DNA of 64,000 nucleotides from Anaerolineae bacterium. GTDB taxonomy: Bacteria > Chloroflexota > Anaerolineae > B4-G1 > SLSP01. The notes under the pieces are model-generated. The model was not told the DNA's origin. It saw nothing but the letters and a program-made list of their open reading frames with translations, and made no database searches. Shown here piece by piece: positions 1 to 60,920 of the stretch. Location: positions 77,382 through 141,381 of the forward strand of contig DAOOGN010000001.1 in assembly GCA_035415725.1 (NCBI GenBank), read 5' to 3'. Each line of letters opens with the position of its first letter. The first letter of the stretch is position 1. The translations under genes and the position numbers were made by a program.

Positions 1-1689
1 ACGTCGCCAACACGGTCGGTGAGTGGAGTGTATGTGAATCACCTGAACATCCCTGTCATCGGCGCCTATTACCCTGTGGACGATGTGGGCATTGGCGTTT
101 TGGTGGAACAAGCGCAGTCCGAAACCCTGGAATCGACGGACCGCATTGCAGCTACCTTGATTGCGCTTGCCCTGGCCGTTGCGCTGGTGACGACGATTAT
201 TGCGGCGATGGTAATCCGTCAGATTACCCGTCCCGTCATCCGTTTGACAGAGTCCGCCGTAGCGATGGCGGAAGGTGACCTGGCGCAGCATCTCGAAGTG
301 ACATCGCGCGATGAAATTGGTATTCTGACGTATGTTTTCAATGAGATGGCCGCCGAGCTGAAATCGCTCTATGCGGATCTGGAGGCCAAGGTTGTCGAGC
401 GGACGCAACGGTTGCAGGAGGCGAACTATCAGATCCAGCGCCGCGCTTTGCACCTACAGGCCAGTCAGGAAGTCGGTCAGGCCATTACTTCTGTACGCGA
501 CCCGACTTTATTGCTTAATCAGGTTGCGGATTTGATCCGGGATTGTTTTGTGTATGCTTCGGTGGCGATTTATATGGTGGAACCGGGTGGCGGAGAAATA
601 CGTTTGCGCGCTCATAGTCCGGCTACTCACAGTGAGACCGTGGTGGATATTGTCGATCAGGGTGCGTGGCCCGAGCGTGTGTATGCCGGCGACGGATCGA
701 TTATAGAGCGGGCGGCGCGCAAGTGCGTCACGCAAGTCGATCATCAGTCGACGGACGAGGCCATGGAGTGGTATCGACGTACCCTAAGTCGGGTGGCGCT
801 TCCCCTGCGGATGGAGGAGCGCGTGTTAGGAGTGCTGGCCGTGTTGAGCACCGAACACGAAGGCATCCAAGAGGACGAACTGGAAATCCTGGAATTGCTC
901 GCCGGGCAGGTAACGATTGCTCTAGAGAACGCCAGAGCCTATGAGCGGGAGCGTCTGGCGGCGCAACGTCTGGAAGAGGCGGAGGCCTTCAAAGGACGCT
1001 TCCTGGCGAATATGTCTCACGAATTGCGCGAACCTCTGAATACTGTCATCGGTTTTTCGCGTTTGATGATCAAAGGCATTGATGGACCGCTGACTCCCCA
1101 GCAAGCTCAAGACATCCAGCGCATATACGATGACGGGCAACGCCTCTTGTTCTTGATCAACGATATCCTGGCGATTTCACAAATTCAGGCCGGCATGTTG
1201 GAGCTAAAACTCCAGCCGGTTCAGCTAAAAGATCTGGTCGATGCCATTATGCCCACAGCCAGCGCGTTAGTGCGGGGTAAAGACATCGAACTCACCCACG
1301 AAATTCCCGCGGATCTGCCTACCCTGCACGCCGATCCGGCGCGCCTGCGACAGGTTTTGGTTCATCTTTTCAACAACGCGGCAAAATTCACCGCGCATGG
1401 GCGGATCGCGCTCAAAGCGTGGTGCAACGAAGACCAGGTTTATGTGAGTGTCAGTGACACCGGTGTGGGTATCCCCCCGGAGGATCTCGAACGGCTGTTT
1501 GTCCGCTTCGAGAAGGGGGCCGATAAAGAGGGACGTTGGCAGGCCGGTATTGGCCTGGGATTGGCGTTGAGCAAGGAATTCGTCGAAATGCATGGGGGGC
1601 ATATCTGGGTCAACAGTGAGGTTAACAAAGGCAGCACCTTCACTTTCTCTTTGCCCTGCTATGTGGGAGATGATGAGGGGAGGAAATGA
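1..1689 (+). CDS. Sensor histidine kinase, 5'-truncated by the window edge (end of a Cache-like domain, TM, HAMP, GAF, HisKA, HATPase_c)
   Basis: Frame 1 is open from nt 1, so the gene starts upstream of the window. The TM segment is IAATLIALALAVALVTTIIAAMVI. The HAMP region is DEIGILTYVFNEMAAELKSLYADLEAKVVERTQRLQ, followed by a GAF segment. The H-box is FLANMSHELREPLNTVIGFSRLM. The G-boxes are DTGVGIPPEDLERLF and GIGLGLALSKEFVEMHGGHIWVNSEVNKGSTFTFSLP. Confidence 0.9.
   Translation, partial: TSPTRSVSGVYVNHLNIPVIGAYYPVDDVGIGVLVEQAQSETLESTDRIAATLIALALAVALVTTIIAAMVIRQITRPVIRLTESAVAMAEGDLAQHLEVTSRDEIGILTYVFNEMAAELKSLYADLEAKVVERTQRLQEANYQIQRRALHLQASQEVGQAITSVRDPTLLLNQVADLIRDCFVYASVAIYMVEPGGGEIRLRAHSPATHSETVVDIVDQGAWPERVYAGDGSIIERAARKCVTQVDHQSTDEAMEWYRRTLSRVALPLRMEERVLGVLAVLSTEHEGIQEDELEILELLAGQVTIALENARAYERERLAAQRLEEAEAFKGRFLANMSHELREPLNTVIGFSRLMIKGIDGPLTPQQAQDIQRIYDDGQRLLFLINDILAISQIQAGMLELKLQPVQLKDLVDAIMPTASALVRGKDIELTHEIPADLPTLHADPARLRQVLVHLFNNAAKFTAHGRIALKAWCNEDQVYVSVSDTGVGIPPEDLERLFVRFEKGADKEGRWQAGIGLGLALSKEFVEMHGGHIWVNSEVNKGSTFTFSLPCYVGDDEGRK

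Positions 1690-60920: not shown

Follow-up and report, generated by a model that had tools for sequence, protein, structure and literature searches.

A co-directional array of kinase-less GAF receptor genes bracketed by two histidine kinase genes in an Anaerolineae genome

A 64,000-nucleotide (nt) stretch of an Anaerolineae genome (assembly GCA_035415725.1, contig DAOOGN010000001.1, positions 77,382 to 141,381 of the forward strand; this whole stretch is hereafter called the window) carries 24 successive open reading frames (ORFs) on its plus strand, g01 to g24, which together cover positions 19-60920. Two of these genes encode solute-binding proteins and 22 belong to the GAF family. Among the latter, the first and the last encode histidine kinases, and the 20 between them combine sensor regions with GAF-type domains and end in one shared segment of about 50 amino acids (aa), referred to here as the stub. 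The locus is very probably a dedicated multi-receptor signalling system. In agreement with a preliminary description of this DNA, it is not a random pile of paralogs: co-directional arrays and their brackets are conserved in related genomes, and purifying selection acts on the genes, all of which are intact. We further propose, with a probability of roughly 0.5, that it is a multi-receptor two-component system, whose receptors would act by contact on the bracketing kinases. Such an arrangement looks like two-component signalling with kinase-less accessory receptors, and is apparently undescribed.

Receptor genes and their domain content

Pfam annotation identifies g01 as a classical histidine kinase (HisKA 9e-19, HATPase_c 5e-29) and g24 as a hybrid kinase (HisKA E 1.4e-19, HATPase_c 3.7e-29, two REC domains 8e-43). 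As originally described, HisKA and HATPase_c are confined to these two genes. No match to HisKA, HisKA_3, HWE or HATPase_c at E<0.01 was found in g02-g14, g16-g21 and g23, a set from which the solute-binding g15 and g22 are left aside, and the 20 inner genes contain no kinase, GGDEF, EAL, HD-GYP, cyclase, ANTAR or DNA-binding domain at the same Pfam threshold. Beyond Pfam, NCBIfam returned only sub-threshold matches of the GAF and LacI-ligand-domain types. PADLOC, applied to five representative products, found no defence model, its sole match being a weak generic ATPase for g01. The preliminary description had stated that the discovery of cryptic output domains would refute its claim that 20 members lack an output. 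None was found in Pfam and NCBIfam searches of all products, nor with PADLOC on the representatives or in profile searches of the C-terminal module against the Protein Data Bank (PDB). In the Pfam annotation, none of the 24 products contains MCPsignal (PF00015), and they are not methyl-accepting chemotaxis proteins (MCPs); the STAS domain that marks RsbR and RsbS has no match among the array products; and no cyclase or other messenger enzyme is encoded at the locus.

The kinase-less 20 consist, in Pfam terms, of sensor domains and GAF domains only, and their N-terminal inputs are as diverse as first reported. MASE11 is present in g02, g03 and g14, dCache_1 together with HAMP in g07, g09 and g16, HAMP also in g04 and g23, a LacI-type Peripla_BP_3 domain in g05, g06, g08, g10 and g12, and PAS in g10 and g19. 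MASE11 is a membrane sensor domain found in combination with HD-GYP, PAS, GAF, GGDEF-EAL and kinases (10.1101/2021.11.05.467447). A hydropathy scan detected no transmembrane (TM) segments in the PBP1 members, the PAS members and g24, which are therefore predicted to be cytoplasmic, and 2 to 8 in the remainder. The GAF superfamily cut-off (PF01590, PF13185, PF13492) is passed by g01-g04, g06-g14, g16-g21, g23 and g24; g11 and g20 pass it by the PF01590 model only, through its C-terminal half. The GAF match of g05 is below threshold, and this gene belongs to the family through its stub and a weakly GAF-like region. The five PBP1 members also share a region of ~290 aa between PBP1 and GAF-A (8857-9708, 11098-11913, 16732-17676, 22525-23418 and 28155-29018), which has no Pfam or PDB match; its first part is helical, and the segment after it shows weak similarity to the hairpin and last helix of a GAF (hhalign E 0.003).

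The features of the locus, in window coordinates, are as follows.

g01, 1..1689, +: 3' part of a 783-aa membrane histidine kinase, HAMP-GAF-HisKA-HATPase_c (Pfam); 5' bracket
g02, 1686..3578, +: MASE11 multi-TM, GAF-A, mini-GAF, stub 3393-3551
g03, 3610..5337, +: MASE11, GAF-A, mini-GAF, stub 5104-5262
g04, 5365..7938, +: 8-TM, HAMP, GAF-A, mini-GAF, stub 7723-7881; public gene call from 5398
g05, 7954..10035, +: cytoplasmic LacI-type PBP1, weakly GAF-like region, stub 9841-9963; no Pfam-significant GAF
g06, 10165..13374, +: cytoplasmic PBP1, mini-GAF, GAF-A, mini-GAF, stub 13177-13335
g07, 13460..15805, +: TM, dCache_1, TM, HAMP, GAF-A, mini-GAF, stub 15599-15733
g08, 15802..18657, +: cytoplasmic PBP1, GAF-A, mini-GAF, stub 18457-18618
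g09, 18654..21605, +: 4-TM, dCache_1, TM, HAMP, GAF-A, mini-GAF, stub 21375-21533
g10, 21589..25827, +: cytoplasmic PBP1, GAF, 2 PAS, GAF-A, mini-GAF, stub 25639-25773; likely start ATG 21589 with GGAGG
g11, 25824..27191, +: minimal member, 6-TM, HAMP-like helix (by eye), mini-GAF, stub 27024-27182; without GAF-A
g12, 27240..30125, +: cytoplasmic PBP1, GAF-A, mini-GAF, stub 29901-30062
g13, 30109..31791, +: multi-TM, GAF-A, mini-GAF, stub 31618-31776
g14, 31807..33534, +: MASE11, GAF-A, mini-GAF, stub 33328-33492
Repeat element of ~150 nt, 33547..33690, no strand: in the g14/g15 gap
g15, 33708..34727, +: PF04392 (TrpX-like) solute-binding protein, directly 5' of the dCache receptor g16; probable co-sensor
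g16, 34737..36953, +: TM, dCache_1, TM, HAMP, GAF-A, mini-GAF, stub 36735-36896
g17, 36937..38649, +: 6-TM, GAF-A, mini-GAF, stub 38428-38586
g18, 38665..40482, +: 5-TM, GAF-A, mini-GAF, stub 40189-40350, then a 43-aa acidic proline-rich end
g19, 40472..44797, +: cytoplasmic, 1441 aa, 3 PAS and 5 GAF, with mini-GAF and stub 44600-44755 at the end
g20, 44790..46196, +: minimal member, 4-TM, mini-GAF, stub 46020-46172; without GAF-A
g21, 46249..48042, +: multi-TM, GAF-A, mini-GAF, stub 47830-47988
g22, 48052..49137, +: PF04392 solute-binding protein, directly 5' of the TM-HAMP receptor g23
g23, 49137..53642, +: TM, periplasmic loop, TM, HAMP, at least 5 GAF, stub 53445-53585; kinase-less GAF rod of 1501 aa
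g24, 53679..60920, +: cytoplasmic hybrid kinase of 2413 aa, ~10 GAF-type domains, HisKA, HATPase_c, two REC; 3' bracket
Second window copy of the ~150-nt repeat, 61533..61690, no strand: 3' of the ferredoxin gene that follows g24

The shared C-terminal module

All 20 kinase-less products align across their last ~170-350 residues. The common order is a GAF domain (GAF-A), the ERRAYG helix, a degenerate mini-GAF, a long helix and the terminal stub; g14 served as the reference member for structure models, profiles and coupling analysis. GAF-A is well conserved ('RFGFYHTGIFL ... TRSEMALPL') and carries a strongly conserved pocket-like signature, and its consensus from 120+ homologs lacks the conserved cysteine expected of a cyanobacteriochrome or phytochrome. 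The mini-GAF is a short, degenerate GAF of which Pfam matches the C-terminal half only. It leads into the long helix ('ALESARLYQDTQRRAAREQ') and the stub, with the consensus '..IT.RIRE.LD.E.VL.TA..E....L.L....VRL', after which 2-43 poorly conserved residues remain. The unit of GAF, ERRAYG linker, GAF and tail proposed in the preliminary description thus holds as a shared unit and needs amending in its parts: the second GAF is only the degenerate mini-GAF, the minimal members g11 and g20 pass from a membrane domain straight to mini-GAF and stub without the first GAF, and g05 has no GAF that is significant in Pfam. If the model proposed below holds, the combination of GAF-A, ERRAYG helix, mini-GAF and stub would be a new conserved transmitter module, from which a profile for annotation could be made.

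Profile searches against the PDB gave weak matches of the C-terminal module to PDE5, PDE2 and CyaB2 (E 1e-4 to 1e-7) and placed the stub at the extreme N-terminus of cyanobacteriochrome and phytochrome GAFs (8w26, 2lb5, 6oza, 8k9o and 6oap). With the mini-GAF included (profile A2), whole-protein E-values of 1e-15 to 1e-23 were obtained for 8w26, 2lb5, 6oza and 6oap, and the stub stretch alone matched 8w26 with an independent E-value of 7e-07; the similarity to these proteins is confined to generic GAF elements. Consistently, the stub aligns with the first ~49 positions of GAF-A, covering alpha1-alpha2-beta1 (hhalign E 4e-5). The stub is therefore the start of a further GAF, cut after its first strand, rather than a cryptic output domain, and within multi-GAF proteins the same sequence forms the beginning of the next full GAF.

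Through the long helix, the architecture of the receptors matches that of the locus kinases; beyond it, the receptors end in the stub at the point where the kinases run into the phospho-accepting DHp helix with its H-box. The helix that precedes DHp in the kinases matches the 'ALESARLYQDTQ' helix of the receptors, and the terminal kinases, g24 included, string together the same GAF-A and mini-GAF blocks. In g24, a GAF-A/mini-GAF unit occupies aa 742-1050 and HisKA aa 1927-1994.

All array ORFs are intact. For g11-g18 and their orthologs in four other species, the ratio of nonsynonymous to synonymous substitution rates (dN/dS) is 0.09-0.21, values that are approximate because dS is near saturation and that indicate purifying selection. 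The genes are hence very unlikely to be pseudogenes, a possibility that the preliminary description had itself raised against its view of the array. Over 35 aa, g11 and g12 have the same stub sequence. In the corresponding tails (26941-27154 and 29821-30034), 9 of 52 identical codons differ synonymously, and in the relative L005 the orthologs of the two genes differ from one another. Identity in this lineage and not in L005 points to gene conversion here, which suggests that the stubs are interchangeable.

Related arrays and the limits of the locus

To survey relatives, one genome per GTDB species was scanned with a conserved module peptide from a 7-paralog alignment. The scan yielded 398 confirmed stretches, the best 80 of which correspond to 61 loci in 51 assemblies; four metagenome contigs bring the set to 65 loci, all from Chloroflexota, whose ORFs we labelled with profiles built from the window. 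All genomes examined are uncultured metagenome-assembled genomes, and every source assembly is labelled Anaerolineae, Anaerolineales, Thermoflexales, Thermoflexia or Chloroflexota. Runs of genes with a (sensor)-GAF-stub layout are found throughout the 65 loci. The stub profile gave 386 matches on the array strand and 0 on the opposite strand, a split that argues against a chance arrangement, and 371 of the 386 (96%) end no more than 45 aa before the stop codon. Loci of at least 13 kb hold 5-10 stub genes per ~20 kb, with the exception of L003, a compact version with 3, and arrays range in size from 3 to >20. Similar arrays thus occur in at least 51 species-level genomes: the conservation in related Chloroflexota, which the preliminary description had suggested checking, is present, and its assignment of the DNA to this phylum is right.

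Homologs with the same length and domain set number in the thousands and are named only 'GAF domain-containing protein'. A profile search of 1.84 billion protein representatives returned 15,385 at E<=1e-30, a set so dominated by giant multi-GAF proteins that it gives no clean family count. Among the best 150 multi-GAF representatives, 102 have a kinase core, 27 are stub-terminated and 0 are both. Giant proteins of the multi-GAF type, 2000-3900 aa long and containing 10-21 repeats of GAF half, connecting helix and next GAF start, are common in public data.

Both brackets recur in the relatives, as judged from the few loci in which a boundary can be read. At the 5' end, the order REC(-REC), (GAF-)kinase, receptors is seen at five of the six boundaries with >3.5 kb of upstream sequence; L028, L040 and L055 show it too. 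At the 3' end, receptors are followed by a multi-GAF hybrid kinase (GAF-kinase-REC) in all four fully visible cases (L003, L022, L048 and L051). These kinase/REC brackets are found at array ends even in distant relatives of 45-60% identity, and relatives at 60-76% identity have the individual paralogs in the same order as the window. In many loci, solute-binding genes stand directly 5' of dCache receptors or are fused to the receptor, a pairing in keeping with genuine sensing of ligands.

In four relatives, the terminal kinase gene is followed by a gene for a threonine-synthase-like, pyridoxal phosphate-dependent (PLP) enzyme of ~560-585 aa fused to a C-terminal REC domain (ThrC-like-REC; L003 17915-19594, L022 16795-18543, L048 16244-17995 and L051 18517-20259). 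Its enzyme part is a PALP domain, with ThrC as the best NCBIfam match, below the cut-off. An EamA-family transporter gene lies directly 3' on the same strand in L022 and L048; in L003 it is on the opposite strand, beyond another REC-kinase gene, and in L051 no EamA gene was identified. Between the REC of these fusions and the second REC of g24, identity is 45-54%. ThrC-like-REC is a possible enzymatic output of the system in relatives and is absent next to g24. None of the loci inspected was seen to encode a DNA-binding response regulator.

The ORF list and the analysis of starts agree on a co-directional, tightly packed array of 24 genes. On the opposite strand, the only ORFs of similar length are embedded in array genes. 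GC content is even along the window (0.55-0.60), and GC skew is positive all along. Shine-Dalgarno-like sequences precede most array gene starts, and with spacing measured after starts had been picked by such motifs, most neighbours overlap by 1-17 nt (stop/start) or are separated by gaps of up to 50 nt. The array genes thus appear translationally coupled in one direction. Tight packing had been described correctly; the three larger gaps, previously given as 86-130 bp, are now ~173 nt (g14/g15, with g15 starting at 33708), 129 nt and 85 nt. A promoter and terminator scan of positions 1-20000 gave counts within noise and no site inside gaps.

The preliminary description had the array occupy positions 1-60920. 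The run of plus-strand genes was confirmed, and the 5' limit was moved: g01 is cut by the window edge (the full-length product on the public contig has 783 aa), and upstream of it lie two genes for single-domain, CheY-like REC proteins of 128 and 139 aa (6752-7138 and 7183-7602 in L001 coordinates). With these two REC genes ahead of g01, the system begins ~1.6 kb upstream of the window. A 920-aa membrane protein, a TPR protein and an epimerase, also encoded upstream, were considered as members and rejected, as they are not conserved beside other arrays. Downstream, g24 is followed in the window's genome by a ferredoxin gene and then by unrelated genes. These include a CehA/McbA-family metallohydrolase (PHP-like) gene at 61679-62797 (-) and a 210-aa ORF at 63318-63950 (-) with no family match, both seemingly unrelated to the array; public gene calls differ for this stretch and place a 353-aa product there.

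Three copies of an intergenic repeat of ~150 nt, ~80% identical, were found at 33547-33690 (the g14/g15 gap), at 61533-61690 and at ~6475-6640 of L001. The L001 copy lies directly 5' of the first REC gene, that is, at the start of the system, and is followed by a TATAAT-like box and a Shine-Dalgarno sequence. The copy in the g14/g15 gap favours 33708 over 33603 as the start of g15. The repeat has no Rfam match and an unremarkable RNA fold (z -1.5), and an Rfam search of the whole window likewise gave no match. It could be a shared promoter/operator region or a small mobile repeat.

Proposed mechanism, alternatives and related systems

We propose that the locus encodes one large multi-receptor two-component system composed of the two REC proteins, g01, the 20 receptors with their two solute-binding co-sensors, and g24. 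Each receptor would join a different sensor to the same transmitter and would work as a dimeric helical-spine transducer of the kinase type without DHp and CA domains, in which ligand binding changes the output helix and the stub. Since receptors without DHp/CA must act by contact, and since the brackets are conserved, the two kinases are the best candidate partners, above all g24, which is made of the same building blocks; the receptors may thus touch the bracketing kinases directly, most plausibly along the GAF rod of g24. Such contact, which the preliminary description had put forward as hetero-oligomerisation with g24 as the main hub, and the choice of partner are suggested by gene order and the shared building blocks; the effect on the kinases may be activation or inhibition. 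Many nutrient-type inputs would in this way converge on the phosphorylation of a few REC domains, namely the two of g24, the two small REC proteins upstream and, in relatives, the ThrC-like-REC enzyme. A phosphoryl output that reaches REC domains only points to a non-transcriptional response. More tentatively, the stub receptors might constitute a new, Anaerolineae-specific apparatus, in which tens of receptors dock through stub and helical spine on a giant multi-GAF scaffold kinase, giving a mixed complex with small REC proteins, and in many species the phosphorylation-controlled ThrC-like enzyme and an EamA exporter, as its output. Such a complex would operate in the manner of a chemoreceptor array or a stressosome while sharing no evolutionary origin with either.

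Several observations weigh against the contact model. In two AlphaFold monomer models (pLDDT, the predicted local confidence score, 72 and 82), the strand of the stub is unpaired and the mini-GAF loops are of low confidence. A mean-field coupling analysis of 473 family sequences (effective number, Meff, 367) finds strong couplings only within the stub and none that link it to other receptor parts. The array of L048 shows no 5' kinase, no effector gene follows g24 in the window's genome, and the co-location of the paralogs could in part stem from tandem duplication. If duplication were the only cause of the array, each receptor might be autonomous, signalling to a partner encoded elsewhere or buffering a ligand or binding a second messenger through GAF-A, with flanking kinases that are unrelated or loosely related. 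The pocket-like signature of GAF-A, which could bind a small molecule, the variation in array size from 3 to >20 and the lack of any identifiable output or partner in the window agree with such a view. Kinase/REC brackets that persist in distant relatives, translational coupling in one direction, a paralog order kept between species and a locus without a cyclase or messenger enzyme speak against it, and we consider it rather unlikely. That the 20 genes are kinase remnants, stripped of their catalytic part and on the way to becoming pseudogenes, is suggested by their resemblance to the locus kinases up to the DHp junction. It is very hard to reconcile with intact reading frames at dN/dS 0.09-0.21, with a conserved stub that is terminal in 371 of 386 matches across 51 assemblies and four metagenome contigs, and with the same end in thousands of homologs, and we regard it as highly improbable.

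A further alternative concerns the stub itself, which might complete the preceding half GAF by fragment complementation. In cis, its alpha1-alpha2-beta1 segment would generate a circularly permuted GAF; in trans, domain-swapped chains would link protomers or different receptors. The idea is attractive in that the Pfam match to the second domain covers no more than the C-terminal half of a GAF, and the stub corresponds precisely to the N-terminal part that such a half lacks. A re-permuted profile can also be aligned with GAF-A from one end to the other (146 columns, versus 58 for the unpermuted one). However, both AlphaFold models show an unbroken 47-residue helix that runs from the mini-GAF into the stub, whose strand is left unpaired. 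The best coupling pairs between stub and mini-GAF rank 128 and 147, whereas the control, alpha2-beta1 of GAF-A against the rest of that domain, gave ranks 15, 38, 40, 55 and 59. Moreover, the mini-GAF has a beta1-like strand of its own (Y425-A475, rank 6), and in multi-GAF proteins the stub sequence is the plain start of the next full GAF. A permuted or trans-completed GAF is thus supported neither by the models nor by a coupling analysis with a working control, and we consider it improbable.

Activated sludge, anaerobic digesters, sediments and hot springs all harbour abundant Anaerolineae, which are hard to culture; to our knowledge, almost nothing is known of how these bacteria sense their surroundings. 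If the contact model is true, much of their sensory input would pass through operon-encoded batteries of kinase-less receptors to one or two kinases, a departure from classical pairs of one sensor and one kinase and a third solution to the many-inputs-one-kinase problem beside chemoreceptor arrays and stressosomes. The 'output-less' GAF proteins that metagenomes contain by the thousand would also be explained. The ThrC-like-REC/EamA pair of the relatives hints at a metabolic rather than transcriptional output, possibly an amino-acid-derived compound that is made and exported.

A full-text literature search turned up neither such arrays nor a stub-terminated GAF family, in keeping with the view of the preliminary description that no system of this kind has been reported; single features do have precedents. 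In the NreA-NreB-NreC system of Staphylococcus, the output-less GAF protein NreA acts through direct contact on the histidine kinase of the neighbouring gene and modulates it. NreA, however, is one small, soluble single-GAF protein, whereas here 20 multi-domain, mostly membrane-bound receptors carry a stub. In the RetS/GacS/LadS multikinase networks, sensors regulate another kinase through hetero-oligomerisation; those partners keep DHp/CA and are not arrayed, in contrast to the receptors described here, which lack DHp/CA. LuxP-LuxQ and TorT-TorS are sensor kinases that depend on solute-binding proteins. The pairs g15/g16 and g22/g23 similarly join a gene for a secreted binding protein to one for a membrane receptor, an arrangement that recurs in relatives, but the receptor partner has no kinase domain. 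The tandem-GAF kinases of the cyanobacterial phytochrome and cyanobacteriochrome type provide the best sequence and fold matches of mini-GAF, helix and stub (8w26, 6oap, 2lb5 and 4fof) and follow the same logic of an alpha5-alpha1 connecting helix. These rods differ in that they end in a kinase, MCP or GGDEF domain, and their bilin-binding cysteine is not conserved in GAF-A.

Chemoreceptor (MCP) arrays with CheA and CheY resemble the locus in their paralogous receptors with diverse sensors (dCache, PAS, HAMP) and one non-enzymatic end module, and in a shared histidine kinase and single-domain REC proteins. Unlike them, the locus has no MCPsignal, CheA, CheW, CheR, CheB or methylation helices; it uses a GAF-based module and ordinary HisKA-type kinases, and its genes are strictly arrayed in one operon. 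The stressosome (RsbR paralogs, RsbS and RsbT) likewise combines variable N-terminal sensors with one conserved C-terminal domain, and there co-assembly controls a single kinase; its domain is STAS and its kinase of the serine type, whereas the locus encodes no STAS or RsbT-like protein. Although the defining features of both are absent, the logic of the locus is, by analogy, closest to that of chemoreceptor arrays and the stressosome.

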